Part shown: in pieces, positions 29,138 through 57,925 of the stretch | Position numbering within the stretch: position 1 is the first letter of the stretch | Layout: the number at the start of each line of letters is the position of its first letter | From: Candidatus Omnitrophota bacterium | Lineage (GTDB): Bacteria; Omnitrophota; Gorgyraeia; Gygaellales; Profunditerraquicolaceae | Assembly (NCBI GenBank): GCA_029571225.1 | Contig: JAKPTF010000035.1 | Coordinates: 145,925 to 209,924, forward strand | Direction: 5' to 3' | DNA: 64,000 bases | Notes under the pieces: generated by a model | Seen by the model: only the letters and a program-made list of their open reading frames with translations | What the model was told of the DNA's origin: nothing | Databases searched by the model: none | Program-made: the position numbers and the translations under genes

Positions 29138-29196
29138 AGAACAAATCTAACATACGGCTGAGGCAAAGTCAAGACGCTGAGTATATATTTTCTTTA

Positions 29197-29259
29197 CCGT
29201 ATCATACTGTATCAAACAGTATCAAAAATCCTTGACATTTGTTGATTTTTATATATACT
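29197..29259 (+). promoter_or_regulatory. Promoter of the outer-membrane-factor gene with three 10-bp-phased direct repeats
   Basis: CCGTATCATA-CTGTATCAAA-CAGTATCAAA at 29197-29226, containing the palindrome TACTGT-N5-ACAGTA (29205-29221). Then -35 TTGACA 29232-29237, a 16-nt spacer, and -10 TATACT 29254-29259. Confidence 0.55.
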
Positions 29260-29300: not shown

Positions 29301-31160
29301 ATGCGCAAAAATCTCTGGTTTTATATTTTTCTGTCGCTAATCCTGACCTTTGTTGTCTCTCCTGCTTCAAAAGCTCAATTCCCTGTTCACACTGACTACG
29401 CGCTTTTCATCCAGGAGCGGATCTATGAGAACCTCATCTATCCGCCTGACGCTTTTGTTCAAGGGCGCGAAGGCATTGTCACGCTGAACTTCACCATAGG
29501 CCAGGACGGATATTTAAAGAATATATTCGTCGCCGAGTCATCCGGGTTCCCATCTCTCGACGAGGGAGCTATTGCTGCTGTCAAAAGCGCAAGCCCCTAT
29601 CCTTTGCCGGAAGATTACGACGGCGAGGATGTCGAACTTGTCGTGCCTCTTGAATTCAAGATGGAAATGGCAGAGGAACCAGGACCGTTTGTCCCGCCTG
29701 AAGGATGGATGCCTGAAGAAGAACCCTCTGAACAACCGGTTCCTGAAAAGGCCCAACCTGTTGAAGAACAACCTGTTGAGCAAGCACCGAAATTCCTTAA
29801 AAAAATCAAAGAAGGCCCGTCCGCATCAGAGCAGGCAATGAAGGATTTCAAGGTCGTTTGGCCTGAGGAACTGTCGAAATTTATCGACCTTGCCATAAAG
29901 AACAATAAGCCGAGCCAGGTCGCCAAGAAAGAAGTCGATCTTGCAGAATTCAAGGTCAAAGAGGCAATGCGCAACCTTCTCCCGTCGGTGAAATTAAGCG
30001 GCGTGGCAACGGACGGCGAAACATACCACGTGCCGTATGAAGAGCACGAGTTTAAGGTTGAATTGAACCAGCCGATTTATTACGGCGGCAGGCTCATCGA
30101 TTCGATCGAACATGCCAGGGTTAATGCGCTTATTGCCAGAATGAATTTCGACCGCATGAAGTTCGATATCATACACAAAACCGAATCATCCTACTATAAC
30201 CTCATCGCCTCGCGCACGCACTGGAGATATAAAGAAGCTCTGCGCAATGAGGCACAGGAACTGCTGGACCGTATCACAAAGCTCTCTGATATAGGCATGA
30301 TAATCCCGCTTGAGCTCAAGAGCGCCCGGTCTTCATTTGAACAGATCGAATTCCAGCTTGCAAGCTTAAAGCAGGATATATACCTGGCGGAATTAACTTT
30401 TAAACAGGTTTTAAACAGCCAGGATGTCCCTTCCATAAGCCTTGAAGAACCCGAAATTGTCAAGCCAGATCTTGATCTGGATGAGCTGTTTCAAGTAGCT
30501 CTCAAACACAGAGCCGAGATACAAATCGGCGAATTAATGGTAAAATTCAGCAAATATGCTAAAAAGATCGAATTAGACAAGGATAATTTCAACGTTGATC
30601 TGGTTGGTTCATTAGGAACATATTCCGGTCATTATAAGACAGAGCCATGGAAGAACTCGACAAACTGGGCAGCAGGCGTCAAAGTCACCAAAATGCTCGG
30701 CGCAAGCACTTTAAAAAGCTCGTTTATAACTGAACGCAGCAGGCCGCGTTTTGGACAAACATCTCCGACAGCCTCAACATCGTTAAGCGGAGAACTTGGG
30801 CTGTTTGACAACATGGCTGCTATTTCAGCTCTGAAGAAGACCGATGTTGACCTTCAGAAGGCCATCAGCGACCTGAACGAGACGCGCAAAACCGTAACTT
30901 TCGAGGTCCAGGATGCTTTTCTGACGTATCAAAAGGCAATTTTACAACTTAACACAGCGTCAGCTGATATGGCTTTCCGAAGGAACCAGGCAGAGATCAC
31001 CAAAATCCGTGCTTCAGTTAATGACGCACCCCTCTCTTCTGCCATGGACTCGCTTTACAGCCTTGCGGATGCGCAGACAAAGTATTTCCAGGCCCTGGGA
31101 AATTATTTTGTCGCGCTCACCAACCTTAAAAAAGCCACAGGATACGGAATAAACATCTGA
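29301..31160 (+). CDS. TonB C-terminal-like domain fused to a TolC-family outer membrane efflux protein (619 aa)
   Basis: AGGAG SD and a signal peptide (MRKNLWFYIFLSLILTFVVSPASKA). YPPDAFVQGREGIVTLNFTIGQDGYLKNIFVAESSGFPSLDEGAIAAVKSASPYPLP is TonB_C-like. A Pro/Glu-rich linker follows, then coiled TolC/OEP-type repeats. Confidence 0.7.
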   Translation: MRKNLWFYIFLSLILTFVVSPASKAQFPVHTDYALFIQERIYENLIYPPDAFVQGREGIVTLNFTIGQDGYLKNIFVAESSGFPSLDEGAIAAVKSASPYPLPEDYDGEDVELVVPLEFKMEMAEEPGPFVPPEGWMPEEEPSEQPVPEKAQPVEEQPVEQAPKFLKKIKEGPSASEQAMKDFKVVWPEELSKFIDLAIKNNKPSQVAKKEVDLAEFKVKEAMRNLLPSVKLSGVATDGETYHVPYEEHEFKVELNQPIYYGGRLIDSIEHARVNALIARMNFDRMKFDIIHKTESSYYNLIASRTHWRYKEALRNEAQELLDRITKLSDIGMIIPLELKSARSSFEQIEFQLASLKQDIYLAELTFKQVLNSQDVPSISLEEPEIVKPDLDLDELFQVALKHRAEIQIGELMVKFSKYAKKIELDKDNFNVDLVGSLGTYSGHYKTEPWKNSTNWAAGVKVTKMLGASTLKSSFITERSRPRFGQTSPTASTSLSGELGLFDNMAAISALKKTDVDLQKAISDLNETRKTVTFEVQDAFLTYQKAILQLNTASADMAFRRNQAEITKIRASVNDAPLSSAMDSLYSLADAQTKYFQALGNYFVALTNLKKATGYGINI

Positions 31161-43798: not shown

Positions 43799-46324
43799 AT
43801 GATCAACAAATCCACTCTCACAGTCGCCGCATTCATCGCAGCAATCCTTGTTATGCCGCGTTTTGCTTTTGCCGAAGGCGAAGCAGCTGCCTTAGGCCAG
43901 GCAGTCGATCTGACCGGCGGGTCCCTTCCCGAGGAAATACGGAATTTCACCGGCGTCGGTTCAGGCGCGTCTTCGTGGGATTATTTGAGCCAGAAGATAT
44001 CCTACGGCTATTATGTCGAAGTGTATTCGCATTTCGACGCCCTTGCCAAGTCAAAGGTCGACAGGCGCAACGGCATCGAGGACCTGGTCGTCGCTTCGTA
44101 CGGCACGGACGCCAAGGCGAACCTCGCCATTGCAGACGTCAAATTCAATCAGGATTACGCCCAGCACGTCATGGCAACGGAATTTGCCCAGCGCTCGGGC
44201 CGCGGAACCCAGATCGCCAACACCTACACCCTCAACACCTACCTGCCCCATTCTGACGGCAGCGTCGAATATTTCAAGGACGGATTGCTGGCGCGCGTTG
44301 ACAATCAGCGCTCAGTGGACGAATTCGGAAATGTCTCAATAAAAAATCTCTATAATTTTGAATATGACCTGGACCGCCGCCTCATGCTTAAACACGAATA
44401 TGACACCACTGACAGCCGCGGCCTGAAAACACACGGCACGTTCACCTGTTCCTATACGGCGGATTCGGTGTTCTATGGCAGCGATGAGACCAACGCGAAC
44501 AAGCATTATGCCTCTTATACGGTCACGGAGACCGACTCCACCGGCAGGGTCATAACCACGACATGGACCGCAGGCGTCTATGAGGGCAAATACCTGCGCG
44601 ATTTCACGCAGACGAATTTCGATTCAAAAGAAGGCACCAGCACATTCAAGCGCTTTAATATCCAGTATTCGGCTCCCGGCCAGATCAGCTCATATGACGA
44701 GACCGGCGTCGGCAACCACATCGAAGGCGAGGACGGGACGAACGTACCCTTCACCTACACCTTGAGCCGCACAAACATCACCTATTATGGCGGGCAGGTC
44801 GCAGGATACGACGAAGTCCGCTACGACATGCCTGCGAACATGGAAGAAGCTGATTTTGACGCCGATCTGAGCAAATGGGTCAAGACCACCACCCATGTCA
44901 CCATGGAATACCTGGACGTTCCTTCCCAGTTCGGCGAGGATGTCGATCCTGACGCGCCGCGCCTGAAGAAAACAACCATCGTTTCGCACACAGAAAAACC
45001 CGACGGCTCTTATGACGACAGCACGGCCGTGACCGAATATACCTATGACAACACATATACCCTCACCGGCGGCACCATCCACACCGAGATGTCCGGACGC
45101 GGTTCAGAAACTATCGAATATACCTTTACGGACAAAGACGGGACGACCCACATCCTGACGCGCACCGAGAAAGACGGTGTCGTGAAATTCACATACACGG
45201 ATGAGGACGGCAATGAAGTCGAGGTTGCCGAAGCGGACGTGGTTACCGAAATCAAGCCGGCGGCGGATTACAGCGGATACACGGACACGGTGCTTGAGAT
45301 CGTGAGCGGCACGCCGATGGCCAAAACGACGACGTCCCACACCGAGTTCAGAGGCATTGCGGACGACCCGGAGAACGGCACTAAGGCCGGGGATATCATA
45401 CGGGTCGAGGATTCGACCGTCACCTTTACCAACAGCGTGGTCGGGTATTTCCCGCGCGTCATTTCTTCAACCGAGGTCACGACTACCGGCTTCCCTGTGA
45501 CCGACCCGGACAACGAGCACCAGTCAAAGAAAAGCATCACTACCACCTTTACCTATGACGCGAACGGCTTTTTAACCGGTGCGTCAGGCGAAGGATATGA
45601 GGAATCGTGGTCATATTCATCGGAACAAGGCTGGAACACCCATATATACGCCAAATACACAGTCGCATATCAGGTTAAGCTTGATAAAGCGCTCAATATA
45701 GCCACATACGTGCAGTGGGTCCCGGTCCCCAGCGCCGCTGAGTTAACAGAGCTGGGCATTACCGAAGAACAGTTCAAGGCGTATATGAGAGGATATTTCA
45801 AACTGCATCCGCCGGAACCCAAAGGCGACGCCACGACATTCGAGATGGACAACCCGTTCATCATCGACGGCAAATACGAGATTCCGAGCGATTTTGACGA
45901 GGTCGTCGCGATCGGCGAGTCGGACGAACCGGTCGCGCCTGCCGCTGACCCGTTCGCGGGCTATGACGAGCAGTCGTTGATGAAACAGGTATGGGGGCTT
46001 TACGACGCCAAGGACTACGCACGCACCGTCGATTTCGCCAATGAGGTCATCAAACGCTACGCCGAAACCGCGCAGGAGCAGCAGGCCTCATTAAAGGATT
46101 TCGCTCCGAAGGGCTCGGAATCGAAATACTGGGCGCTCAATGACGTGGCAATAGCGTATTACCTTAAAGGCAAGGTTTTGCTTGCGCAGGGCAAGACCGA
46201 TCAGGCAAAGAAACAGTTCCAGGCGGTCCTGAACAAATACAGCTTCGGGCAGTGCTGGGACCCGCAGGGATGGTTCTGGAAAGTTTCAGTTGCGGCAAAG
46301 GAAGAACTTGATAAAATAGGCTAA
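43799..46324 (+). CDS. Secreted repeat protein, 841 aa, with the shared C-terminal TPR-like domain
   Basis: GGAGG SD and signal peptide MINKSTLTVAAFIAAILVMPRFAFA. Thr/Tyr/Asp-rich YD-like repeats. The C-terminus reads ...QQASLKDFAPKGSESKYWALNDVAIAYYLKGKV...FGQCWDPQGWFWKV. Confidence 0.65.
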   Translation: MINKSTLTVAAFIAAILVMPRFAFAEGEAAALGQAVDLTGGSLPEEIRNFTGVGSGASSWDYLSQKISYGYYVEVYSHFDALAKSKVDRRNGIEDLVVASYGTDAKANLAIADVKFNQDYAQHVMATEFAQRSGRGTQIANTYTLNTYLPHSDGSVEYFKDGLLARVDNQRSVDEFGNVSIKNLYNFEYDLDRRLMLKHEYDTTDSRGLKTHGTFTCSYTADSVFYGSDETNANKHYASYTVTETDSTGRVITTTWTAGVYEGKYLRDFTQTNFDSKEGTSTFKRFNIQYSAPGQISSYDETGVGNHIEGEDGTNVPFTYTLSRTNITYYGGQVAGYDEVRYDMPANMEEADFDADLSKWVKTTTHVTMEYLDVPSQFGEDVDPDAPRLKKTTIVSHTEKPDGSYDDSTAVTEYTYDNTYTLTGGTIHTEMSGRGSETIEYTFTDKDGTTHILTRTEKDGVVKFTYTDEDGNEVEVAEADVVTEIKPAADYSGYTDTVLEIVSGTPMAKTTTSHTEFRGIADDPENGTKAGDIIRVEDSTVTFTNSVVGYFPRVISSTEVTTTGFPVTDPDNEHQSKKSITTTFTYDANGFLTGASGEGYEESWSYSSEQGWNTHIYAKYTVAYQVKLDKALNIATYVQWVPVPSAAELTELGITEEQFKAYMRGYFKLHPPEPKGDATTFEMDNPFIIDGKYEIPSDFDEVVAIGESDEPVAPAADPFAGYDEQSLMKQVWGLYDAKDYARTVDFANEVIKRYAETAQEQQASLKDFAPKGSESKYWALNDVAIAYYLKGKVLLAQGKTDQAKKQFQAVLNKYSFGQCWDPQGWFWKVSVAAKEELDKIG

Positions 46325-46351
46325 AAAGGGGAAATCTCTAAGGAGGGAATC

Positions 46352-47563
46352 ATGGTCGCAGGTATGGGGTCAGTTAAGAAAAGTATGATTCTGGCGGCGG
46401 CGATAGCGCTTCTGCTTGCGCCTGTCCGCTCGTTCGCGGAGGATTCTTCGACAACCGTTACGCACGACACGAAGATCATCAGCGGCACTCGCACGATCAC
46501 CAATACGTATAATGCGTTCGGCTCGCTGATGTCAAGCACCGAGATCTCCGATCAGGTCGTCAAAACGACCAGCACGGTAACAAAGGACGGCAAGGAAACC
46601 AAGACAACGAGCTATACGGAACAACACACCATCGTGACAAGCGAATGGATCGGCGGCGGTTTAAAGACCACGCAGGTGGAAGGATATTCGGTCACCGGCG
46701 GCGACCCAACAAAAGGCACGCCCGGCAAGGAAAATCCCGCATCCGATGAATCCTGGTCCAGGACTGATTTCAAGAATGTTTATCAATATGACGCCAACGG
46801 CCGGCTCTGCGGGGTAACGGGCGGCATAGAGATCACCGACGACAACGGCAACAAGATGCTGGTCAATTCAGTGACCACGGGCAGCAGAGGCAAAGACGCT
46901 GAAGGCAAGGCCCTGGGCACATTTACCGCGTATTCGATAGACACCTATGAGATCAGGAACGGCCAGGCGTTGAAGGTCAAAACCGAAAGCGTTCAGATCA
47001 CCAACGGTTTTGGCGACAATAAGGATGGCGTATCGAAAACAGAAACAACCACCACATATGATTATAAGCTGATGGGCGGGACCTGGGTCTTGAACAGCAT
47101 GTATGAAACGACGGACACGATCACCACGTCCGGAGACGCAAAAGGGTCTACGAGCCATCAGGAAAAAGAGACCATTTACCACCGCAATGAGGACGGAACG
47201 CTGGTAACGACCAAGACAGGCGGCAGCTATGACGCGATCGAGGTCATCATGCACGAATATACGGATGTGGTCAAGGGTAACGGAGGATCAACCACATGGG
47301 TCCTGAAAGACTATTCGTATACCGTTTCTCTTGACGAACAGCAGGGATACTACATCTCATCCGACACGATCTCCCAGAAGATCGACGACAATGCGGCCAG
47401 CGGCTACAGCAAGCACACGACTTCCAAGATCATCCAGGATGTGCTTGAGGATGAGGATGCGGAAGAAATAAGCAGGGCGATCAAAGCCGCGCAGGCGAAG
47501 TTTGCCGCACACCTCTCAAGCGTCATTACAGCAGCGGCAACGGCAACGAACATTACCTGGTAA
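46352..47563 (+). CDS. Secreted Thr-rich beta-repeat protein, 403 aa
   Basis: AAGGAGGG SD. Hydrophobic leader ...MILAAAIALLLAPVRSFA. No domain recognised. Confidence 0.55.
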   Translation: MVAGMGSVKKSMILAAAIALLLAPVRSFAEDSSTTVTHDTKIISGTRTITNTYNAFGSLMSSTEISDQVVKTTSTVTKDGKETKTTSYTEQHTIVTSEWIGGGLKTTQVEGYSVTGGDPTKGTPGKENPASDESWSRTDFKNVYQYDANGRLCGVTGGIEITDDNGNKMLVNSVTTGSRGKDAEGKALGTFTAYSIDTYEIRNGQALKVKTESVQITNGFGDNKDGVSKTETTTTYDYKLMGGTWVLNSMYETTDTITTSGDAKGSTSHQEKETIYHRNEDGTLVTTKTGGSYDAIEVIMHEYTDVVKGNGGSTTWVLKDYSYTVSLDEQQGYYISSDTISQKIDDNAASGYSKHTTSKIIQDVLEDEDAEEISRAIKAAQAKFAAHLSSVITAAATATNITW

Positions 47564-47581: not shown

Positions 47582-47613
47582 GGGCCTCCTGATAGACAGG
47601 AGGCCCTTTTTTT
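47582..47613 (+). terminator. Intrinsic terminator ending the secreted-protein operon
   Basis: GGGCCTCCT 47582-47590 pairs with AGGAGGCCC 47598-47606, followed by TTTTTTT 47607-47613. Confidence 0.8.
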
Positions 47614-47634
47614 GCCCGCAGGGCATTGATTGTA

Positions 47635-47663
47635 TTGACTCTTGAGGGCTGATTTGATATAAT
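47635..47663 (+). promoter_or_regulatory. Near-consensus sigma70 promoter, apparently giving a leaderless or near-leaderless mRNA
   Basis: TTGACT 47635-47640, a 17-nt spacer, TATAAT 47658-47663. The ATG at 47673 is only 9 nt after the -10 element. Confidence 0.6.
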
Positions 47664-47672: not shown

Positions 47673-48458
47673 ATGAGAGAAAAAAAGTTACGGGCTATTT
47701 TTGTTCTTATGCCTGCCGTTTCTGTTTTTCTGGCAGGGGCCCCTCTTTTATTCGGCCAGGACCGGGCAGGCTCGGCATCCGTCACCGAAATAACCGTGGC
47801 CGGCCGCCTTTACCTTGATAAGCTCGGAACGGAAGAATTGCTCGTGCTGCACGGCACGGATAAAAAGGCTTACCTGGTCAGCGGCGCGCTAAGCATTCAG
47901 CTTGCCGCGATCGCCCGCCAGAAAAAAGACGCTCATATCGTCGAGCTCTCCGGACTGCTTGACCCGGCTCAGACCATACGGAACTGCGACAGCCGCAATG
48001 ACCTGGCATATAACGACAAAGGCGAGCAGGTCGTCAACCGGACATCGACGTGCATCCGTTATTTCCATTTTGAGCCTCGGACGATCGTCTCGTGCGTTGA
48101 TTCCGCCGCGGCGCTCCCGGAACTTGAGCATGACACGCTGGCCGAAATGCACACGAGATCGGCCCCTCCGGTCGGGGACCTGAAACCAGCCATCATCGGC
48201 GAGATATACGGCACGATCAGGCAGGTCAATCTGCGCTCGCCCTTAAAGACCGTCGAGATCAGAAACAGCGACACGAAAAGCACGTTGAAATCGGTTACGG
48301 TCGTGATCACGGCAAAAACGCGCATTGCCCGCGCGGTCAAGGGAAAAGAACCAGTGCCGATGATGCCGGAGAACCTTAAAGCCGGCCAGCAGGTCGTTGT
48401 CATGTACGACCGCAACGAGATCCGGGCAGAAGCGCTTTCTATTGCAGTCACAAAATGA
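47673..48458 (+). CDS. Hypothetical exported protein, 261 aa, first gene of the RND cluster
   Basis: Track ORF with N-terminal MREKKLRAIFVLMPAVSVFLAGAPLLFG. No recognised domain. Confidence 0.5.
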   Translation: MREKKLRAIFVLMPAVSVFLAGAPLLFGQDRAGSASVTEITVAGRLYLDKLGTEELLVLHGTDKKAYLVSGALSIQLAAIARQKKDAHIVELSGLLDPAQTIRNCDSRNDLAYNDKGEQVVNRTSTCIRYFHFEPRTIVSCVDSAAALPELEHDTLAEMHTRSAPPVGDLKPAIIGEIYGTIRQVNLRSPLKTVEIRNSDTKSTLKSVTVVITAKTRIARAVKGKEPVPMMPENLKAGQQVVVMYDRNEIRAEALSIAVTK

Positions 48459-48477: not shown

Positions 48478-51400
48478 ATGAGCGTAGCGAGTTTATCGGT
48501 TAACCGCCCGGTCACGGTCCTGATGCTGTTTCTCGGGGTCATCCTCCTGGGCCTGATCTCCTGGACAAAACTGCCGCAGGAACTCTTCCCTTCCATCACC
48601 TATCCGCAGATCACCGTCGTCACTTCATACGAGAACGCCGCTCCTGAAGAAATCGAGTCGCTCATCACCAAGATCGTGGAAGAAGCGGTCGGCACGGTCA
48701 ATAACGTCAAGCGCATTTCTTCCATATCCAAGGAAGGGTCGTCCCTGGTCATGGTTGAGTTCAACTGGGGCACGAACATGGACTTTGCAGCGCTCAACGT
48801 CAGGGAAAAAATAGACCTCATTAAGGAACGTCTGCCGCGAGAGGCAAAAGACCCGATTGTCATGAAATACAATCCCTTTGACCTGCCGGTCGCCAACCTC
48901 GCCGTCACCGGCCCCATGACGCCCCTGGACCTGCGGGAGATGTGCCGCAAATACGTCAAGGACGCCATAGAGAAGGTCGAGGGCGTCGCATCCGCCACCA
49001 TCACCGGCGGCGAGGAACGCGAGATCCTCGTGGAAATCGACCAGCCGCGGCTGCGCGCGTCCCAGATATCCATCGTTTCGATCGTGGAAAGCCTTAAATC
49101 CGCCAATCTGAACTACCCGGCAGGCACCATCAAGGAAGCGTTTTATGAGTACCTCATCCGCACCATGGGCGAATACCAGACGATTGCCGAGATCAAGGAT
49201 ACGCCGGCAGCGCTCGATATCCCCGAGGAAAAAGCCAAAACGCTCAAAGAAAAGGAAAAAGAAGAAGCCAAGGGCAGGCGCCTGGTATATCTGAAGGATA
49301 TCGCCACGGTCAAGGATACGGTAAAGGAAAAAACGAGCATCTCGCGCTACATGGGCGCGGATAACGTATCACTGGTAATACGCAAGCAATCCGGCACCAA
49401 CACGCTTAATGTCGTCAACGGCATCAAACGCGAGATAAAAACGCTGCTCGCCACCAAGCTGCCAAAAGGCGTTAAGATCCAGATGACCTACGATCAGTCG
49501 GTCTTTATAAAAGAAGCCATCGGCAATGTCCGCAATGCGGGCGCGCAGGGAGCGATCCTCGCCTTTATCGTGCTCTTTCTGTTCCTCTGGGAGTTAAAAG
49601 CCGCACTGATCATCACCGCGGCGATCCCGCTGTGCATCACCGCGACCGCGGTGCTCATGTATTTCTCCGGCATCAACCTCAATATGATGTCGCTCGGAGG
49701 TTTGGCTTTGGGCGTCGGCATGGTCATCGACAATGCCAATATCGTCATTGAGAACATCTTCCGCTACCGCTTTCAGGTAAAGGCGGGATTCAGGGAATCC
49801 ATCGTGAAAGGCACGGGCGAGATGACCTCGGCCATCATCGGCTCGACTTTAACCAACATCGCGGTCTTTTTGCCGTTCGTATTCGTCGTCGGCATTGCCG
49901 GCCAGATATTCAAACAGTTGTCTTTCACCATCTCTTTCTCTCTCCTGGCCTCCATCATCGTCGCGATTTCGCTTGTGCCGGTCCTGACCCTGATCTGCGG
50001 AGAGTCGAAACGGGACGAGCGCATCAGCAGGAAGGTCGAAGCGGTTACCGAGGAATTGACGGGAAAATTCCAGGCGTGGTTCACCGGCCTCATGCAGCAG
50101 AAATTGATGATCGTTGGCGTGGTCGGCGTACTGTTCGCTTTGAGCCTGATCACCCTGTTCTCCTTGAACAGGGAGTTCATGCCCCGGGTAGACCAGCGGC
50201 AGTTTATCATCAAGGTGGACCTGGCGCCCGGCACGCGCCTTGAGATCACGGATAAAGTGGCGCGGAAACTGGAACGGGCGATCCTTGCTTTGCCGGAGAT
50301 CAAGGACTGCACGGTGAATATCGGCTCCAGCGAAGAAAAGGATTCGCCTGAAAAAAGCGCGCTCCAGACCATGGGCAGCCACCAGGCTCAGATCCTGGTC
50401 AACCTGCAGAAGAAGAACGTCCGCTTCAGGCGTTCCACGGATGCGGTCATCCAATATCTCAAGTCGTCTTTGGAGAACCAAAACCTGGAAGACGCGGAGC
50501 TTGAATACATTGCCCAGGAAACATCGCTGGGTTCCGCCATCGAGCAGGGCGCGCCGATCGTCGTCGAGATCAAGGGACCGGACCTGAACAAGCTCATGGG
50601 ATACGCAAGCCTGCTTCAGAACCAGCTCAAGGCAGTCCCCGGCATCTATGGCGTCAAGATGACCATGGCAAAGCCAAGTCCCGAAACAAAACTCAATATA
50701 CGTAAGGACAAGGCATCCCTTTACGGCCTGTCGGTGCGTGATATCGCAGTCACGACCCAGGTCGCGCTTAAAGGGTATGTCGCGACCAAGTACAAGGAAA
50801 AGAACGTCGAGGAGGACGTGGATATCCGCGTGCGGCTACGGCCTCAGGACCGAAGCGATTTCGGCAAACTCCAGCGGCTCCTTATCCATTCTCCGACGGG
50901 AGTCGATGTGGCCATGTCGGATCTCGCATATCTGGCAAAGGGCCAGGGCCCGACCGAGATCAAGCGCATAGACCAGCAGCGCAGTGTCATCGTTACGGCG
51001 AACATCTTCAACCGCAATTTCGCCGATGTTGCGCGCGATATCAACAGCCGGATCGCCGAGCTTAAAAAAAGCCATATCAACCCGGCATACACCTTAGACC
51101 TCGCGGGCGAACAGCAGAAAATGCGGGAATCCTTCGCCAGCCTTGCCTTTGCGCTCATCATGGCGATATTGCTCGTTTATATGATCATGGCTGCGGAATT
51201 CGAATCGCTCTGGCAGCCGCTGTTGATCATGTTCACCGTGCCCCTCTCTCTTATCGGCGTCGCGTTCACTCTTCTGATCACCGGCACGTCCTTGAACGTG
51301 GTCGCGTATCTGGGCATCATCATGCTCGGCGGCATCGCGGTCAATAACGGCATTGTCTTGATCGAGTTCATCAATGCCTTGCGCAAACAAGGGTACTCTG

Positions 51401-52542
51401 CCGAAGCAGCGGTCATTGAAGCCAGCAGGACCCGCTTGCGGCCGATCCTCATGACTTCAGGAACGACGATCCTGGGCCTTGTGCCATTGGCTCTGGGCAT
51501 TGGAGAAGGCGCAGAACTCCAGGCGCCGCTTGCGCTTACAGTTCTTGGAGGGTTGGTTTCAGCAACCTTCCTGACGCTCGTATTCATCCCTGCCCTCTAT
51601 GTCCTGGTCGAAAACCAGCTTTCTGCGATACCGTTTTTCCGAAAGACCGACCGGCTTGCGCAGGGGCCCGAAGAGGAAACTGCTCTGCTTGCTGCCGGGC
51701 AACAGCCGTCATCTCCATCTCCTGAACCGCGGCCGGCAGCTACCGATGATTCTGCCGTACAGATAGAAAATATGAGGCGGGCGCTTGAGGAAAAAGAAAC
51801 GGCTTATCAGGAATTGCAGCGGCAGATCCAGAGCCAGCAGGCCGGAATGGCCACGCAATCGAGCGAAAAAGAAAAACAGCTCGAGGACCTGAAGCGGCAA
51901 CTGGAGGAAAAGGAGCTCGCGCTTGCCGGATTACGGCGCGACGCGCAATCAGCCCGGGAACAGGCAAATGCTGCCGCACAGGCGGGCGCGCTTTCAGCCG
52001 AGAAAGAAAAAGAATTTGAAGAAAAACTGCGCCATTATCAGGAAGAGGAAAAGCGCCTCAAGACGCTGGCCGAAGAGCTCGAGTCCCGGCAGAAGGATTA
52101 TCAGAACGCGTCGATCGAAAAAGAACGACAGATTGAGGATATGCGCAAACAGTTGTCAAGCAAGGAAAGCGCCCTCAGCGAATTAGAGCAGCAGATCGAT
52201 AGGCAAAAACGCAACCTTGAAATATTGCTCCAGCAAAAGAACGACGAGCTTGCGGCGCTCGAGCAAAAGGCAGCGCAGCCTGAAAAACCTTCGACGCACG
52301 AGGAGCATGTTCAGCAGGGCGCTCCTCAACCGCAGGACGGACCGTCGGAGTTAAACCCGCGCCAGATCAAACTGCTTGAAAAATTCCAGACGGTAGAGCG
52401 TATCACTCGCAAAGAATACGCGGACATGCTTTCGATATCCATTCCGACCGCGGCGCGCGATCTCAAAGAACTGGTTGACAAGAAGATCATTGTCGCCAGA
52501 GGGCCGCTCGGCCCGGGCCGCTGGTACGAATTGAACAAATAA
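48478..52542 (+). CDS. RND (AcrB-family) transporter with a ~320-aa C-terminal coiled-coil + winged-HTH extension, 1,354 aa
   Basis: The N-terminus MSVASLSVNRPVTVLMLFLGVILLGLISWTKLPQELFPSITYPQITV is typical of ACR_tran, with 12-TM architecture to about residue 1030. It is followed by an E/Q/K-rich heptad region. The end reads ITRKEYADMLSISIPTAARDLKELVDKKIIVARGPLGPGRWYEL. Confidence 0.8.
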   Translation: MSVASLSVNRPVTVLMLFLGVILLGLISWTKLPQELFPSITYPQITVVTSYENAAPEEIESLITKIVEEAVGTVNNVKRISSISKEGSSLVMVEFNWGTNMDFAALNVREKIDLIKERLPREAKDPIVMKYNPFDLPVANLAVTGPMTPLDLREMCRKYVKDAIEKVEGVASATITGGEEREILVEIDQPRLRASQISIVSIVESLKSANLNYPAGTIKEAFYEYLIRTMGEYQTIAEIKDTPAALDIPEEKAKTLKEKEKEEAKGRRLVYLKDIATVKDTVKEKTSISRYMGADNVSLVIRKQSGTNTLNVVNGIKREIKTLLATKLPKGVKIQMTYDQSVFIKEAIGNVRNAGAQGAILAFIVLFLFLWELKAALIITAAIPLCITATAVLMYFSGINLNMMSLGGLALGVGMVIDNANIVIENIFRYRFQVKAGFRESIVKGTGEMTSAIIGSTLTNIAVFLPFVFVVGIAGQIFKQLSFTISFSLLASIIVAISLVPVLTLICGESKRDERISRKVEAVTEELTGKFQAWFTGLMQQKLMIVGVVGVLFALSLITLFSLNREFMPRVDQRQFIIKVDLAPGTRLEITDKVARKLERAILALPEIKDCTVNIGSSEEKDSPEKSALQTMGSHQAQILVNLQKKNVRFRRSTDAVIQYLKSSLENQNLEDAELEYIAQETSLGSAIEQGAPIVVEIKGPDLNKLMGYASLLQNQLKAVPGIYGVKMTMAKPSPETKLNIRKDKASLYGLSVRDIAVTTQVALKGYVATKYKEKNVEEDVDIRVRLRPQDRSDFGKLQRLLIHSPTGVDVAMSDLAYLAKGQGPTEIKRIDQQRSVIVTANIFNRNFADVARDINSRIAELKKSHINPAYTLDLAGEQQKMRESFASLAFALIMAILLVYMIMAAEFESLWQPLLIMFTVPLSLIGVAFTLLITGTSLNVVAYLGIIMLGGIAVNNGIVLIEFINALRKQGYSAEAAVIEASRTRLRPILMTSGTTILGLVPLALGIGEGAELQAPLALTVLGGLVSATFLTLVFIPALYVLVENQLSAIPFFRKTDRLAQGPEEETALLAAGQQPSSPSPEPRPAATDDSAVQIENMRRALEEKETAYQELQRQIQSQQAGMATQSSEKEKQLEDLKRQLEEKELALAGLRRDAQSAREQANAAAQAGALSAEKEKEFEEKLRHYQEEEKRLKTLAEELESRQKDYQNASIEKERQIEDMRKQLSSKESALSELEQQIDRQKRNLEILLQQKNDELAALEQKAAQPEKPSTHEEHVQQGAPQPQDGPSELNPRQIKLLEKFQTVERITRKEYADMLSISIPTAARDLKELVDKKIIVARGPLGPGRWYELNK

Positions 52543-52544: not shown

Positions 52545-55500
52545 ATGGGACTCCCCTCAATACCCGACTTCTCCGTTAAACGGCCGGTAACCGTCTGGAT
52601 GTTTTATGTAGGCGTTATGCTTATGGGCGCCATCGCGTTCATGGCCCTGCCGGTCGAGATGATGCCGAATGTCAGTTTCGGCGATATCACCATCAATATC
52701 GACGTGAGGGGCGGCATGCCCGCGTCCGAGGTCGAGAAGCGCATCACCAAGCTCGTCGAAGAAGCGGTCGGCAGCGTTACCCACCTCAAGGATATCATCG
52801 CAATCTCCAAGGAAGGCAATGCCACGATTATCCTGGAATTCGAGCCCGGGACCAACATGGATTTCGCGGCACTGGAGGTGCGGGAAAAATTCAACCGCAT
52901 CCGAAACAAGCTCCCTCCCGAAATAGAAAAACCGGTCGTCGCCAAGTACGAATATATGGACGTGCCGATCATGATCATCGCCCTCACGAGCCCTATCCGC
53001 ACGCCGGAGCAGCTGCGCAAGATCGTCGACGAAAAGGTCAAGGACCGCATACAGCGCATCGAGGGCGTCGCCAACGCCGAGATCGCCGGCGGCCGCGAGG
53101 GAAAGGTCATCATCGAGGTGGACCAGCGCAAGATCCAGTCCTACGGCCTTCCCATCAACCGCATCGTTGACATTATTAACCTCAACAACGAGAACGCGCT
53201 TGCCGGCGAGATCAAGGGAGCGCGCAATAAATTCCTTGTGAGGACCATCGGAGAGTTCAAGACGCTCGACGACATCGCCAACCTTGCCATCGCCACCAAC
53301 GAAAAAGGCTCGGTCATCAGGGTCAAGGATGTCGCGACGGTAAAGGATTCATACCTGGACCCGGTGTCGTTCTCCCGCATGAACGCAAACCCCGTCGTTT
53401 CCATTTACGTGCAGAAGGAATCGACCGCCAACACCGTCCAGATATCGAAGCTCGTGAAAGAAGAAATGGCCAGGCTTCGCGCCCTGCTTGAAAAAGACAT
53501 CCAGGTCAACCTGACCTTCAACCAGGCAGACGTCATCCAGCAGGCAATTGCCCAGGTCAAATCGTCGCTGGCGACCGGCGCGTTGCTCGCCGTTGCGGTC
53601 CTCCTGTTGTTCCTCGGGGATCCGCGCCTTGTGTTCATCATTGCGACGTGCATCCCCGTATCCCTGCTCATGACATTCGTGTGCATGTTTTTCTCAAAAC
53701 TGTCGCTCAACGTCATATCATTAAGCGGCCTGGCTCTGGGCGTTGGCATGCTTATCGACAACGCGATCGTGGTCCTCGATAACACGTTTAAGAAACGCCG
53801 GCGCTTTGCCGCCAGCCAGCATCCGGACCCGCAACGCTGGGAGCAGATCGCGGCAATGGAGGGCGCGGACGAAATGGTCCTGGCAATCACCGCGTCCACG
53901 TTCACCACGATCATCGTGTTCCTGCCGATCGTCTGGATCAATCCGGAGATACAGAAACTCTACTCGGGTATTGCCCTGACCATATCATTCGCCCTGATCG
54001 CGTCGCTTTTGACATCGATCTCTCTGGTACCGATGCTGCTCACCAAGATCCGGATCCGCAATAAGGCGCCGATAGATCAGGGAAACGCCGTGCATCCGGT
54101 CGTCCGGGCCTGGCAGGCGCTGGCCGGATTCGGACAAAACATCTACCGGGGATTCATCTCAATTTCTCTGGCCCTGCGCTACGTGCTCATCCTTCTTGCC
54201 GCGCTCGCGTTCATGCGGGCTTTTCAGGAATCGAACAAGCTGGAAAAGGAGTTCATCGGCATCGCGGAACAGAACAAATTCACGATCTTCATCGAAATGC
54301 CCACGGGGACAAAGCTCGACGTGTCCAACGCGGTCGTCCAAAAAGTCGAAGATATCCTCAAGAAATACCCCGACATCAAGACCGCCACGGCCAAGATCGA
54401 GCCCTGGTCGAGCAAGATTTTCGTCGAGATGGTGCCGTTCGGCCAGCGCAAGATGACGACTGCGCAGATGATAAACGAGCTCCGTCCCTATACGGAAAAA
54501 ATGGACCCCGCCTTCATTTATTATGAAGAGCCCGAAGAGGTCGGGACCAAAGAGATCATTCTGGAGCTGTTCGGCTACGATTATGATACCCTGAAGAATT
54601 TGGCGATCCAGGTCGCCCAGCGTATCCAGACGATCCCAAAGTTTACAGACACCAAAATCCGCATGCGCGAGGGCAGGCCGGAGCTTCACCTGTACATAGA
54701 CAAGCGCCAGGCCGCGTATTTCGGCCTGAGTGTCGAGTCGATCGCGCTGGCGCTTCACACCAACACGCGGGGGCTGGTCGCAACGCGTTACCGCGGCACA
54801 ACCGAGCCGCTGGTCAGGATAAAAAGCGGCCTCGATACTTCGGAAGCGCCCGGGGACGAGATCATGTCAAAGGTTCCGCGGACCGCCGCATCCGCCGATT
54901 CTCTCGTCGGCAAGGAAACAGAGACGATCGTGCGCCTTGAAGAACAGTTCAGAAAATCATTCGAGGCCCTGCGCCGGACGACATTTGTGACTCCCGAGGG
55001 ATATATGGTGTTCCTCTCGCAGCTGGCGAATTTCAAATTCGACCTGGGGCCGAGCGAGATATGGCGCAAGAACAAAGCGCGCATGGTGCAGGTTTCGGCT
55101 AACACCGGCGGCACGGCTCTGGGCACTGCGGCGGATAACGTCATCAAGGCGCTCAAGGACCTTAAATTCCCCAAGGATTATTTCTGGCAGATCGGCGGCA
55201 ATTACGACAAGATGCTGCGCAACCAGCAAGAGCTCGGATTCGCCCTACTCTTGAGCCTGATTCTGGTATATATGATCCTGGCCAGCCTTTTCGAATCGTT
55301 GAGCCAGCCGTTCATCATCCTGGCGACGGTACCACTGGCTGCGATCGGCGCGATCATCGCGCTGCGTTACACGAACAAGCCGGTCGGCACGGGCGTTCTG
55401 ATCGGGGCGATCATGCTCGACGGCATCGTGGTCAATAATGCAATCGTGTTGATCGACCGTATCAATTTCCTTCGGAAGAAACCTGAGTTCGCCGGAAATG

Positions 55501-55736
55501 TCAGGTCCGTGATCGTCGAGGCCTCGCTTGACCGCCTGCGCCCCATCATGATGACCTCTCTGACAACGATCCTGGGCCTGATCCCCATGGCGATCGATAA
55601 AAGCGAGTCCGCGAACCTGTGGTCGCCTCTGGCTATCACGGTCATCGGCGGATTGACTTTATCCACGGTGCTGACGCTTTTTATTATTCCGTGCGTGTAT
55701 CTTGTATTCTGCGACTTCCGTTTGATAAAAAAGTAG
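52545..55736 (+). CDS. RND (AcrB-family) transporter, 1,063 aa
   Basis: The start lies 2 nt after the upstream stop. FSVKRPVTVWMFYVGVMLMGAIAFMALPVEMMPNVSFGDITI... and the conserved C-terminal half are both AcrB-like. Confidence 0.85.
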   Translation: MGLPSIPDFSVKRPVTVWMFYVGVMLMGAIAFMALPVEMMPNVSFGDITINIDVRGGMPASEVEKRITKLVEEAVGSVTHLKDIIAISKEGNATIILEFEPGTNMDFAALEVREKFNRIRNKLPPEIEKPVVAKYEYMDVPIMIIALTSPIRTPEQLRKIVDEKVKDRIQRIEGVANAEIAGGREGKVIIEVDQRKIQSYGLPINRIVDIINLNNENALAGEIKGARNKFLVRTIGEFKTLDDIANLAIATNEKGSVIRVKDVATVKDSYLDPVSFSRMNANPVVSIYVQKESTANTVQISKLVKEEMARLRALLEKDIQVNLTFNQADVIQQAIAQVKSSLATGALLAVAVLLLFLGDPRLVFIIATCIPVSLLMTFVCMFFSKLSLNVISLSGLALGVGMLIDNAIVVLDNTFKKRRRFAASQHPDPQRWEQIAAMEGADEMVLAITASTFTTIIVFLPIVWINPEIQKLYSGIALTISFALIASLLTSISLVPMLLTKIRIRNKAPIDQGNAVHPVVRAWQALAGFGQNIYRGFISISLALRYVLILLAALAFMRAFQESNKLEKEFIGIAEQNKFTIFIEMPTGTKLDVSNAVVQKVEDILKKYPDIKTATAKIEPWSSKIFVEMVPFGQRKMTTAQMINELRPYTEKMDPAFIYYEEPEEVGTKEIILELFGYDYDTLKNLAIQVAQRIQTIPKFTDTKIRMREGRPELHLYIDKRQAAYFGLSVESIALALHTNTRGLVATRYRGTTEPLVRIKSGLDTSEAPGDEIMSKVPRTAASADSLVGKETETIVRLEEQFRKSFEALRRTTFVTPEGYMVFLSQLANFKFDLGPSEIWRKNKARMVQVSANTGGTALGTAADNVIKALKDLKFPKDYFWQIGGNYDKMLRNQQELGFALLLSLILVYMILASLFESLSQPFIILATVPLAAIGAIIALRYTNKPVGTGVLIGAIMLDGIVVNNAIVLIDRINFLRKKPEFAGNVRSVIVEASLDRLRPIMMTSLTTILGLIPMAIDKSESANLWSPLAITVIGGLTLSTVLTLFIIPCVYLVFCDFRLIKK

Positions 55737-55784: not shown

Positions 55785-57056
55785 ATGGCCGCGAAGATCG
55801 CCAGGCTGCTGATCGGGATCTGGATCATTTTCCTGATCGGATATTTCGGCATGAAATGGTATCAAAAACAAAAAGCGCAGACAGCTACCGCGCCTGCCGA
55901 AGTCGTTGGACAGCCTGCGGAGAAAAAAGGCTTTTCTCTTCCATTCTCCCTGCCGGGCATGAAAAAATCCGAGCCGGAACCCGCTCCGGCGCAGACGCCC
56001 GCCCCGTCAGCTCCGGAAGAACCGATCCTTCCGCAGGTGCGAACGCTGAAATTAAAAACCGTCGATTTCAAGGATGTCCTGCCTGTCATGGGCACGATCA
56101 AGGGTGTCACCGAGATCCCGCTCAAGTTCGAAATCAACGGCGTGGTCAAAAAAATAAATTTCCGTGAAGGCGAACGGATCAAAGCCGGTGACCTTGTCGC
56201 CAGCATAGATTCCAAGGATGTCGAGCTCAAGGTCGCATACGCCAAGGCCAAGTTCAACGCAGCGCAGGCGGCGTATAATTCCGTGCAGAAGCAGCTTGAG
56301 ATTCACAAAAAGCTCTACGAGGCCGGCGCAATCATCAAATCCAAGATGGAACAGATAGAGCTTGAGGTCGAGTCTGCCAGGTATCAGCTGGAGACCACGC
56401 GCAGCGAAGAGGAATTGGCTTCGAACGAGATGCGCAAGACGTTCATTTACGCTGCCAAGGACGGGGTCATGGGAGCGCGCGATGCCGAAGAAGGCGAATT
56501 CGTCACACCCCAGGACAAGGTTGCGACGATCTACGAGATCAATGAGGTATTTGTCGAGGTGGGCGTGGTCGAACGCGACATTGATAAGATCAAGCTCGGA
56601 CAGATCGCGAAGGTCTTCGTTGACGCCTATCCGTCGCTCGCGTTTGAAGGCGTGGTGGCGTATGTCTATCCTGTTGTCGAGGGCAAAAGCCGCACGTTGA
56701 CGGTCAAGATCAAGGTCCCGAATCCCAAGAGCCTGCTTTTGCCCGGCATGTTCGCGCGGGCCGAGATGAGCATTGTCGAACTGCCAGGGGCGCTTATGGT
56801 CCCCGCGTCAGCGCTCATAAACTCCGGAGGGCTGACCCTTCTGTCGATCATTCCCGCGCGCACCATCCAGGAAGCCGCGGATGAATTGACGGGCACGGCG
56901 CAGATCGTCAAGATCAAGACCGGGTATCTTTCCAGCGATTACGCGCAGATCATCGAAGGCGCCAGCGAGAACGACCTTGTCATCCTCGAAGTCCAGGGCG
57001 AACTCAAAGAAAACGCGCCGGTCAAAATCGTCGGCACCGAAGAACTCACCTTCTAA
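55785..57056 (+). CDS. RND periplasmic adaptor (membrane fusion protein, HlyD/AcrA family), 423 aa
   Basis: AAGGAGG SD, an N-terminal TM segment, a lipoyl-like motif (INFREGERIKAGDLVASID), a coiled-coil hairpin and beta-barrel motifs. Confidence 0.8.
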   Translation: MAAKIARLLIGIWIIFLIGYFGMKWYQKQKAQTATAPAEVVGQPAEKKGFSLPFSLPGMKKSEPEPAPAQTPAPSAPEEPILPQVRTLKLKTVDFKDVLPVMGTIKGVTEIPLKFEINGVVKKINFREGERIKAGDLVASIDSKDVELKVAYAKAKFNAAQAAYNSVQKQLEIHKKLYEAGAIIKSKMEQIELEVESARYQLETTRSEEELASNEMRKTFIYAAKDGVMGARDAEEGEFVTPQDKVATIYEINEVFVEVGVVERDIDKIKLGQIAKVFVDAYPSLAFEGVVAYVYPVVEGKSRTLTVKIKVPNPKSLLLPGMFARAEMSIVELPGALMVPASALINSGGLTLLSIIPARTIQEAADELTGTAQIVKIKTGYLSSDYAQIIEGASENDLVILEVQGELKENAPVKIVGTEELTF

Positions 57057-57059: not shown

Positions 57060-57925
57060 CCAAGACGCTTTAGCTAACCACTTCCATAGCAATAAGATAC
57101 AATTTAATTCTTTTGCTTTGTTTTTGGCCGTCCCCTCCGTAAGGATATAATCCTGCCATTCCCCTTGATGAGCCTCTGAATAAACATCTCATCCCCCTGC
57201 GGCGTTTTCATATCCTCCCAACGCGTGTTATCCACATCATTATATTTCTGCAGAAAATGGGTATATGCCTCTTGCCGTTGCGCCTTTTCAGTGCCGAGGT
57301 CTTCATACATAGGATCCGTTGTCGTAATGCCATCATCTATGCCCAAACAATAAAATCGAGCGCTGCCATACGTATAATCAGATGCAACAGTTACGATCTT
57401 GTCCTTAACCGGATTATAATCGATGTACCTGCCGCACGAAAGCATGTAATTTTCTTTCTGAACAGGCTTTGACTGAAATCTGCCCTGCCATAAATATCCG
57501 CACCCTTTATATCGTTTATGAAAATATTTAGTATACGCTAAGGAAATGCCGGCAATGGCCCGTGACAACTTTTCAGGATCCACCAGTTCAAGAAGAAGAT
57601 GGTAATGGGTAGGCATGATGACCCAATGATAAATCCTGAGCGAAAACATAGCAATATATTTCTTCAGAATAATGCAGAAATGTTCATAATCCTGTTCATC
57701 ATAAAAGATCACTTTCTTAGAATTGCTTCTGTTATAAATATGGTAGGTTAACGAGTCAAACAATTGATACTTCCTGGCATATGGTGACATATCACACCTC
57801 CTTTGTCTAAATAGACGCGGGAACATGTAATATCTCACTATTTATTAATATTGATCCTGGAATTGTGAAATAAAGAATTGTTTTGTAACTCTTTGGGGGG
57901 TATTGGGTTAGCTAAAGCGTCTTCA
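57060..57925 (-). mobile_element. RAYT / IS200-like Y1-transposase unit bounded by inverted REP-like repeats R3 and R4
   Basis: R3 at 57060-57113 (CCAAGACGCTTTAGCTAACC...AATTCTTT). R4 at 57872-57925 (reverse complement TGAAGACGCTTTAGCTAACC...GTTACAAAACAATTCTTT). Together they flank the HUH/Y1 gene. R4 ends 1 nt from the 3' end of tRNA-Glu. Confidence 0.65.
57104..57790 (-). CDS. REP-associated tyrosine transposase (RAYT) / IS200-family Y1 HUH transposase, 228 aa
   Basis: AAGGAGGTG SD before ATG 57788-57790 (the track ORF is extended to 57838). HUH motif in MPTHYHLLL and a catalytic-Tyr region GYLWQGRFQSKPV. Confidence 0.75.
   Translation of the reverse strand: MSPYARKYQLFDSLTYHIYNRSNSKKVIFYDEQDYEHFCIILKKYIAMFSLRIYHWVIMPTHYHLLLELVDPEKLSRAIAGISLAYTKYFHKRYKGCGYLWQGRFQSKPVQKENYMLSCGRYIDYNPVKDKIVTVASDYTYGSARFYCLGIDDGITTTDPMYEDLGTEKAQRQEAYTHFLQKYNDVDNTRWEDMKTPQGDEMFIQRLIKGNGRIISLRRGRPKTKQKN

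Follow-up and report, generated by a model that had tools for sequence, protein, structure and literature searches.

A conserved C-terminal winged helix on an RND efflux permease of Candidatus Omnitrophota, with a candidate operator at the outer-membrane channel gene

Introduction

Why an efflux permease of the resistance-nodulation-division (RND) superfamily should end in what looks like a DNA-binding domain is the question raised by a locus of a Candidatus Omnitrophota bacterium, a member of a phylum of ultra-small bacteria. The locus lies in a stretch of 64,000 nt of contig JAKPTF010000035.1, here called the window, to which all coordinates without a locus label refer. The gene in question, RND1 (48478..52542, +), encodes a permease of 1354 aa that continues far beyond its last transmembrane (TM) helix. 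A preliminary description had proposed that this continuation comprises a long coiled coil and a winged helix-turn-helix domain (wHTH) of "Fic/DeoR type", and that the wHTH is a candidate binder of a conserved promoter box. The RND pumps known to us are under the control of two-component systems or of soluble repressors that are separate proteins.

A single polypeptide that has both a DNA-binding domain and one or more TM regions is defined as a transmembrane transcription regulator (TTR); such proteins are widespread and can be polytopic (PMC10269533). A well-known example, ToxR, is a membrane-anchored wHTH protein that binds "tox-boxes" at promoters (PMC8517210). In a survey of 50,302 TTRs, the permease family ACR_tran is counted only twice, without discussion, and the accessible part of its supplementary text contains no Omnitrophota name (PMC10269533). 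With its predicted 12-TM core and its modelled wHTH fold, RND1 would fall within the TTR definition. The preliminary description knew of no characterized RND pump with a wHTH fusion, and none turned up in the literature that we searched.

Results

RND1 and its C-terminal tail

RND1 is a single open reading frame (ORF) with no stop or frame break near 51.6 kb, where a missed stop separating two genes had been a concern. Residues 4-1044 match Pfam ACR_tran (E 1.4e-237; 791.5 bits against a cut-off of 28, above the gathering score), which by sequence makes RND1 a permease of the RND superfamily (ACR_tran, HAE1-like). The permease core, MdtB-like according to NCBIfam and a solved-structure match, spans residues 1-1045 (48478..51612, +). 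In AcrB, the proton-relay residues are D407, D408 and K940. Read by eye, without a residue-level alignment to AcrB, TM4 and TM10 of RND1 contain VIDNANIV and AVNNGIVLIEF, respectively, which would leave one Asp of the relay in place, with Asn instead of the second Asp and of the Lys.

TM12 ends at ...FIPALYVLVENQL, residue 1048, and the tail therefore comprises about 306 residues (nt ~51622-52539), in good agreement with the 320 or so first proposed. We modelled the last 315 residues with AlphaFold2 (AF2) and ran a heptad scan on the tail. It begins with a disordered, Pro/Ser-rich linker (residues 1054-1087; 51637..51738, +), recognized by its composition and a predicted local distance difference test (pLDDT) score <50. 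Two long coiled-coil-type helices follow (residues 1088-1168 and 1174-1265; 51739..52272, +; pLDDT 80-91), with a short break between them. Their 173 helical residues are free of proline, are acidic (isoelectric point (pI) 5.0), and show the hydrophobic a/d heptad periodicity of a coiled coil; matches to the coils of SMC/Rad50 are weak. A second disordered spacer (residues 1266-1293; 52273..52356, +; pLDDT ~34) leads to the C-terminal wHTH (residues 1294-1352; 52357..52542, +; assigned from pLDDT >90 and Foldseek), after which Asn-Lys and the stop codon end the protein, exactly as in the terminal peptide quoted in the preliminary description. No second copy of the wHTH was found within the window.

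Conservation of the fusion

A search with the tail retrieved 45 independent metagenome proteins in which an RND C terminus is joined to the wHTH; nearly all are partial and many are named Omnitrophota, and one, from an Omnitrophota metagenome-assembled genome (MAG), is 100% identical. Scanning species-representative genomes with an alignment of the wHTH only confirmed 114 loci, almost all of them from Candidatus Omnitrophota, and 80 of these were retained. Every complete ORF containing the wHTH (61/61) encodes a continuous, full-length RND permease of 1143-1449 aa with 46-94% identity to the core in the window.

These data bear directly on whether assembly or annotation has artificially joined an RND gene to a separate regulator gene. 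A few genomes do have split versions (see below), in which the stand-alone gene follows RND2, the paralogous permease gene next to RND1, and not RND1 itself. Because the ORF in the window is uninterrupted and the same fusion recurs in 61/61 ORFs from independent assemblies, with linkers of 27-325 aa, we rejected a frameshift or missed stop, and an artefact is effectively refuted. That the fusion is real and conserved across the phylum is practically certain, and its sequence conservation indicates that it is under selection.

Conservation is concentrated in the wHTH, which is 50-92% identical across the 80 loci. Its 17 invariant positions fall in LNxRQ, ITRKEY, SxPTAARDLKxL and GPLGPGRWYEL, and the invariant residue types are R/Q/R/K/S/P/T/A/R/D/L/G/P/G/R/Y. 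By contrast, the linkers cannot be aligned; they measure 27-325 aa (median 79), usually contain 10-38% proline, and are rich in Glu and Lys. A fused coiled-coil linker occurs only in the window and in L001, L002 and L022 (4 of ~74 loci), whereas tethers elsewhere are disordered and P/E/K-rich, poly-E or ER/K-like. The coiled coil proposed from the window is thus present there, but it is a local elaboration that can be ruled out as a defining family feature. Because the wHTH is conserved and the linkers are not alignable, the family trait is an anchor, a hydrophilic spacer and a wHTH.

Fold and relatives of the winged helix

Modelled in isolation by AF2 with a 44-sequence multiple sequence alignment (pLDDT >90), the domain consists of helix H1, a short beta strand, helices H2 and H3, and a beta-hairpin wing. 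When the model was compared with the PDB by Foldseek, its neighbors were CadC/SmtB/CzrA (ArsR/SmtB), MarR and AspA (TMq 0.6-0.72). The C terminus of RND1 thus adopts, according to a confident prediction and its structural matches, the winged helix-turn-helix fold that had been suggested for it. Among solved structures, the highest identity is to the C-terminal wHTH of Coxiella Fic2 (CbFic2; 8cil; 30-31%, TMq 0.70), and identity to DIP2311 (3lmm) is 27%.

The label "Fic/DeoR-type" holds in its first half, as the nearest relative by identity is a Fic protein, whereas the likeness to DeoR is limited to the shape of the HTH. A precomputed PF08220 match is present in many wHTH homologues. RND1 itself has no match to the DeoRC effector domain and carries its HTH at the C terminus, and it is therefore not a DeoR-family regulator. 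Likewise, no Fic domain (HxFx(D/E)GNGRxxR) was found anywhere in RND1, which has only the type of C-terminal wHTH in common with Fic proteins. The wHTH of the window gave no match to PF22168 (DIP2311-like_C) at E<=1; more distant members of the family do match it. An exhaustive profile search with the wHTH returned 2149 proteins at E<=1e-3, with the RND-fused subfamily as the top tier. Lower tiers contain Fic-like proteins of ~350-370 aa with a C-terminal wHTH, AlbA_2/HATPase_c_4 proteins, helicases, proteins with 6-8 tandem wHTH copies, DIP2311-like_C matches and many small stand-alone proteins. P0046 (2918 aa) was discarded as a top relative; its rank came from the summed scores of four wHTH copies in an AlbA_2/HATPase_c_4 protein.

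The wHTH of CbFic2 contributes to binding of double-stranded DNA (dsDNA) and to DNA-induced dimerization, and CccR, which likewise combines Fic and wHTH, represses transcription from its own promoter (PMC10628234). CbFic2 was assayed on generic dsDNA of 20-60 bp, and its binding was ascribed in part to unspecific ionic contact with a basic surface (PMC10628234). Because of these data, DNA binding as such, rather than sequence-specific binding, is the default expectation for this type of wHTH. With a pI of 9.9 and a net charge of +5, the RND1 wHTH would probably bind DNA.

Alternatively, the winged helix could be a protein-protein or small-ligand module, similar to those of cullin, PCI or ESCRT proteins, that recruits a cytoplasmic partner or clusters pumps and has no DNA role. 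The best PDB sequence match, a weak one, is indeed to a PCI-domain winged helix (8amz, E 0.6), and long flexible tethers would suit "fly-casting" for protein partners. It also counts against DNA binding that all matches of the isolated wHTH to HTH families in Pfam and NCBIfam stay below the curated cut-offs (HTH_Crp_2, 23.3 bits versus 27; HTH_24, 21.2 versus 21.9; HTH_DeoR, 15.7 versus 21), although these matches, sub-threshold as they are, are of HTH type and consistent with the confident fold prediction. Set against this alternative are the positive charge of the domain, conserved basic residues in H3, the wing and the N termini of H1 and H2, where a wHTH usually contacts DNA, structural neighbors that are overwhelmingly DNA-binding regulators, and a family relative that binds DNA. 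We therefore regard a role confined to proteins or small ligands as improbable.

A split form with its own membrane anchor

The search for RND1-like proteins without a tail led to L204, an Omnitrophota MAG in which RND1 ends 14 residues past TM12. Between RND2 and the gene for the outer-membrane channel (OEP), L204 instead has a separate 329-aa gene, named "DeoR family transcriptional regulator" by NCBI, that encodes an N-terminal TM helix, a coiled coil of ~180 aa, an acidic spacer and a wHTH of the same family. Two homologues, P0294 and P0072, occupy the same position upstream of the OEP gene, and both have a TM helix at the N terminus if an upstream in-frame start is taken. In L204, L208 and L209, each of which encodes such a separate protein of ~330 aa between RND2 and the OEP gene, the last TM helix of RND1 or of the preceding RND gene is followed shortly by the end of that gene. 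Because the split form keeps a TM anchor, the tail can be regarded, by Rosetta stone reasoning, as a functional unit tied to the efflux cluster with conserved membrane attachment.

This arrangement also speaks to the possibility that the tether is a cleavage substrate, such that regulated proteolysis upon pump stress, misassembly or turnover frees the wHTH as a soluble regulator. The tethers of most members are long, disordered and accessible to proteases, and the membrane-integrated regulator CadC is reported to show proteolytic cleavage-dependent activation (PMC11484849). Yet the split form retains its own TM anchor, which argues that membrane attachment matters, and the unalignable linkers contain no conserved cleavage motif. 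Release by proteolysis thus appears quite improbable.

In L208 (1727-2454) and L209 (183-910), a nucleotidyltransferase/HEPN pair resembling MNT-HEPN toxin-antitoxin systems lies between RND2 and the stand-alone gene. The tail-less modules of L201 and L202 have an unrelated small HTH gene in or beside the operon. In several tail-less modules the RND1 gene is called in two pieces (for example, 436 + 677 aa in L201 and 561 + 448 aa in L202); these are frameshifts or assembly errors.

Tandem repeats at the promoter of the outer-membrane channel gene

What might the wHTH bind? The preliminary description had proposed that it binds a conserved promoter box, for which the window offers two candidates. 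One of these, WACCGTATCA, is present in 10 copies in the window (0.1 expected). Three tandem 10-bp repeats, TACCGTATCA TACTGTATCA AACAGTATCA, form a candidate operator (29195..29224, +) that ends 7 nt before the sigma-70 promoter (TTGACA-16-TATACT, 11/12; 29232..29259, +) of the gene for a TolC-like outer-membrane factor (29301..31160, +). This protein, recognized by its match to OEP (E 1.3e-36), bears an N-terminal TonB_C domain (E 2e-14) and is presumed to be the outer-membrane partner of the pump.

Related loci repeat this picture. In 1.08 Mb of such loci, over which motif counts were taken, the 9-mer ACCGTATCA occurs in 66 exact copies against ~4 expected, 60/66 of them on the coding strand. 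For the promoter statistics we used the 32 OEP genes having upstream sequence on the contig; at least two motif copies, with one mismatch allowed, precede 28/32, and TTGACA is likewise present in 28/32. Tandem direct repeats precede a TTGAC[AT]-17-TAnnnT promoter in 29 loci, with a repeat period of 11 nt in 20/26 pairs, and the gaps between repeat and -35 group around 1, 11 and 20 nt, a spacing suggestive of helical phasing. In many loci, degenerate copies (GCGTATCAAGCGTATCA) overlap the OEP start codon. Direct repeats in this position against a promoter are the textbook layout of a site from which a winged-helix protein activates. The operon driven by the OEP promoter includes, in most genomes, the gene for the wHTH itself.

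The motif also varies together with the protein. Five loci have a variant wHTH, with ...LTGAS... in H2 and GPLA[KR]GRYY in the wing. In those with an OEP promoter on the contig (n=4), ACCGTATCA is missing and is replaced by tandem GAGACGGTT (GAGACAGTT in L077) just downstream of the -10 element; GAGACGGTT is the reverse complement of ACCGTCTC / AACCGTCTC, one base off the motif. The motif thus changes to ACCGTCTCA where the wHTH varies. A ACCGTCTCA cluster in L204 (10340-10453) was not counted as support, as it looks like a longer, different repeat with palindromes rather than 11-bp tandem sites. Modules that lack the wHTH (L201, L202 and L206), which have the same gene order and an intact region upstream of OEP, contain no exact ACCGTATCA copy in 15-21 kb. 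Motif presence in 28/32 versus 0/3 wHTH-less modules gives p ~0.005 in a Fisher test that counts loci individually and applies no phylogenetic correction for kinship. For WACCGTATCA, the proposal of a conserved target is therefore supported by circumstantial evidence: repeats that abut the OEP -35 throughout the phylum, a variant motif with the variant wHTH, and absence from wHTH-less modules.

Several observations weigh against the wHTH as the protein that reads these repeats. The co-variation represents one or two events in evolution, and GC content is a confounder. A gene for a ROK regulator with an N-terminal HTH_24 ends directly upstream of the repeats in 21/32 OEP-promoter loci and, because it too is absent wherever the motif is absent, it co-varies with the motif no less closely than the wHTH. 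Direct repeats in tandem next to a -35 element are, moreover, also a hallmark of response regulators of the OmpR/PhoB type, the genes for which could lie elsewhere. No ACCGTATCA-type motif was found at the OEP promoter of the split-form contigs L208 and L209. In the window's clade, no ACCGTATCA lies near the RND unit's own promoter (47582-47663), and because this unit has its own motif-free promoter, "autoregulation" is not general.

A metagenome scan for ACCGTATCA-N0-3-ACCGTATCA points in the same direction, with at least 120 contigs matching and the module present in 4 among those listed. Seven contigs (L082, L091, L109, L118, L146, L176 and L185; GC 0.49-0.55) have intergenic ACCGTATCA direct repeats beside inverted TGATACGGT arrays, with no module genes and no wHTH of this family nearby. 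Because these arrays look like iterons or operators for another binder, the 9-mer may serve other proteins elsewhere. At the same time, 82 ACCGTATCA pairs among the matches listed lie inside ORFs of at least 80 aa and hence are due to chance or coding; we roughly estimate that, in so large a collection, chance alone would yield dozens of matches to an 18-base pattern. The motif-side scan is thus uninformative as to specificity. A family-wide link between wHTH and motif was also considered and dropped, as an hmmsearch of the contigs listed gave just RND proteins and one weak 511-aa protein. In the literature, ACCGTATCA was found only in primers and unrelated sequences.

One explanation consistent with these observations is that the wHTH binds DNA non-specifically, for tethering of the nucleoid or the locus in transertion or pump placement, or for DNA sensing, and that the repeats serve a soluble ROK regulator or a regulator of the OmpR/PhoB type, whose textbook sites fit the repeat geometry. 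Unspecific ionic binding of generic dsDNA by CbFic2, the ROK gene abutting the repeats in 21 loci and the identical tandem arrays in unrelated contigs without this wHTH all fit this explanation. So does the H3 signature S-x-x-T-A-x-R-D-L, which may be structural rather than a specificity determinant because many unrelated architectures share it. Against it, the 64-kb window has no ROK gene despite its 10 motif copies, and L027/L028, L014 and L063 also have the motif without an adjacent ROK gene. The usual operators of NagC/Mlc-type ROK regulators are palindromic (textbook knowledge), the motif variant tracks the wHTH variant, and surface-exposed residues of the wing and H3 are very strongly conserved, which argues for a specific ligand. 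On these grounds we consider this explanation less likely than not, with the adjacent ROK regulator a serious contender. A link between the wHTH and the motif is plausible but not established, and that the wHTH acts on the ACCGTATCA repeats as a tethered regulator is our preferred reading, at slightly less than even odds.

Other occurrences of the motif deserve mention. The 511-aa protein, which belongs to no Pfam or NCBIfam family and has a weakly similar C-terminal wHTH (E ~1e-4), is encoded in L138 (53-1585, -), L195 (765-2297, -) and L199 (1372-2904, -), and a tandem ACCGTATCA array lies 25-230 nt from the end of its gene. In five Omnitrophota-like contigs (L102, L104, L130, L147 and L174), a ACCGTATCA pair lies ~50 nt upstream of a small gene (MGKKYKLLE...) that is divergent from FIST/histidine-kinase genes like those at 58051-60798 of the window; this small gene may be a further regulon member. 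Within the window, four ACCGTATCA copies are found at 27850-28480 (-), downstream of a riboswitch at 28616-28716, in a region that encodes SAPSY-like repeats without a clean long ORF and may be a degraded or frameshifted gene.

A second box and cyclic di-GMP riboswitches

The other candidate box, GTTAACAGAAGCAAAAGTT, is present in four copies in the window (31168-31186, 32822-32840, 38506-38524 and 43481-43499) against 0.01 expected. With up to three mismatches, it gives six hits in five related loci (L001, L003, L014, L022 and L053). It lies 67-111 nt upstream of two riboswitches and just before a promoter-like site at 43516-43545. GTTAACAGAAGCAAAAGTT is not supported as a target of the wHTH, since it is limited to the window's clade and is found upstream of promoter-like sites leading into cyclic di-GMP (c-di-GMP) riboswitches; this part of the promoter-box proposal gained nothing. 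Restricted to this clade, GTTAACAGAAGCAAAAGTT probably functions as an upstream promoter element or an activator element.

Three c-di-GMP-I aptamers, all above the Rfam gathering score, precede large secreted-protein genes (28616-28716, -; 31253-31347, +; and 43610-43716, +). The last of these (RF03167, 61.7 bits) lies in front of the genes for secreted proteins that precede the RND unit. A cluster of FIST, histidine kinase and response-regulator-GGDEF genes is located at 58051-61796, and the whole region may be under c-di-GMP control.

The two-permease system and its surroundings

RND2 (52545..55736, +; ACR_tran E 4.6e-215), the tail-less MdtC-like paralogue, starts 2 nt past the RND1 stop. 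It is ~35% identical to RND1 and is directly downstream of the wHTH-RND gene in every locus extending far enough. A gene for a membrane-fusion (periplasmic adaptor) protein (MFP; 55785..57056, +; HlyD_D23 E 1e-33; TIGR01730 RND_mfp 190 bits, above cut-off) follows and is syntenic in 59 loci. The RND unit of the window's clade begins with the gene for a 261-aa secreted protein without a Pfam match (47673..48458, +), which is kept upstream of RND1 in 18 loci, and is preceded (47582..47663, +) by a terminator (47582-47606) and a sigma-70 promoter, TTGACT-17-TATAAT (47635-47663). Gene order in this clade is 261-aa protein, RND1, RND2 and MFP, with the OEP gene of the window 17 kb upstream and large secreted TPR-tailed proteins in between; in the other clade it is OEP, MFP, RND1 and RND2, with the OEP orthologue heading the operon.

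Two adjacent paralogous RND genes with one MFP gene correspond to the MdtB/MuxB-MdtC/MuxC arrangement. In NCBIfam, RND1 scores 368.8 bits for MdtB/MuxB (cut-off 1584) versus 353 bits for MdtC, RND2 scores 391.5 bits for MdtC (cut-off 1774) versus 331 bits for MdtB, and, among solved structures, RND1 matches MdtB best by sequence (9lyq_B, E 3.9e-93). Because all scores are far below the equivalog cut-offs, the arrangement is MdtABC-like, not orthologous.

A TonB_C/TolA-like N terminus on an OEP protein, as in the window, is an unusual fusion that recurs in L204 and L209 (TonB_2/TonB_C + OEP). The secreted proteins between the OEP gene and the RND unit in the window's clade (31391-47563) are 493, 491, 467, 903, 1579, 841 and 403 aa long and have almost no Pfam matches besides C-terminal TPRs. 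Immediately after the MFP gene are an IS200-like Y1 transposase gene (57104-57838, -) and a tRNA gene (57930-58004, -), a site that may mark a rearrangement breakpoint. Another tRNA gene (61845-61915, +) overlaps the listed start of a GlnRS/GluRS-type ORF (61905-63629), the true start of which is probably further downstream.

Discussion

Our analysis suggests the following answer to the question raised by this locus. RND1 is the first, MdtB-like permease of an efflux system composed of OEP, MFP, RND1 and RND2, and its cytoplasmic C terminus is extended by a long hydrophilic tether ending in a basic wHTH of the Fic-C-terminal/DIP2311 type. In the conserved functional unit of membrane anchor, spacer and wHTH, most Omnitrophota have the pump itself as the anchor, and a few have a single TM helix in that role. 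The wHTH would most likely bind DNA while tethered, making RND1 a transmembrane transcription regulator anchored by a full-length and possibly working RND permease, with a tether that would allow the basic domain to reach the nucleoid. The best candidate target would be the pair or triplet of ACCGTATCA direct repeats with an 11-bp period, located 1-20 bp upstream of the -35 element of the OEP gene; their position would suit activation. In this way, how abundant the pump is, how it is assembled or what state it is in could feed back on production of the system.

In E. coli, MdtB and MdtC form an MdtB2C heterotrimer. If RND1 and RND2 assemble in the same way, two wHTHs per pump would match two repeats, and in the subclade of the window the two long helices could pair the tails. 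In the most far-reaching version of this model, an RND pump would be its own transcription factor: two tethered wHTHs on two 11-bp-phased ACCGTATCA repeats would read out pump number, assembly or conformational state directly, without a soluble regulator, in a "trigger transporter" conserved across the phylum. We regard this version as possible, though on the doubtful side.

The proposed arrangement resembles that of ToxR, CadC and TcpP, in which a wHTH at the cytoplasmic face of the inner membrane is held on a poorly conserved tether (PMC8517210, PMC10269533), and in both cases the target, here a proposed one, consists of repeats just upstream of a promoter. ToxR-like proteins are bitopic and carry their OmpR-type wHTH at the N terminus and a periplasmic sensor at the C terminus; RND1 instead has a C-terminal wHTH of another family anchored by a 12-TM transporter. 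RND1 would thus be like ToxR and CadC in logic and unrelated to them in ancestry. BcrR similarly combines an HTH and several TM helices in one polypeptide and regulates a transporter system (cited in PMC10269533). It differs as a dedicated sensor, with an N-terminal XRE-type HTH and 4 TM helices, that is not itself a transporter.

The wHTHs of CbFic2 (8cil), SoFic, CccR and DIP2311-like proteins share with RND1 the signature LNxRQ...ITxxEY...S..TA.RDL..L...G.L...G.G+...Y. By contrast, RND1 has no Fic, AlbA_2 or HATPase_c_4 domain, and the RND-fused subfamily has invariants of its own, S[IV]PTAARDLK and GPLGPGRWYEL. In common with E. coli MdtABC and Pseudomonas MuxABC-OpmB, the Omnitrophota system has tandem paralogous RND permeases and one membrane-fusion protein. 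The E. coli mdtABC operon carries a wHTH regulator of its own, BaeR of the two-component system BaeSR, at its 3' end. In Omnitrophota the wHTH is instead fused to the first permease, is of the Fic/DIP2311 rather than the OmpR type, and is accompanied by an outer-membrane factor bearing a TonB_C domain.

In conclusion, we report here a wHTH fused to the first permease of an MdtABC-like efflux system across Candidatus Omnitrophota. The proteins, at present named only "efflux RND transporter permease subunit" in databases, can now be annotated accordingly. The system lends itself to analysis, with a small, confidently folding domain and a defined candidate operator of 20-30 bp. Natural variants are provided by a wHTH/motif pair differing at one base and by the split single-TM form, and the range of tether lengths, 27-325 residues, constitutes a natural experiment on the reach of a membrane-bound regulator. 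For Omnitrophota, in which we know of no genetic system, this is a rare concrete regulatory hypothesis. If true, it would widen the class of transmembrane transcription regulators beyond dedicated sensors to include working transporters, and no feedback loop linking an envelope machine to its genes could be shorter.

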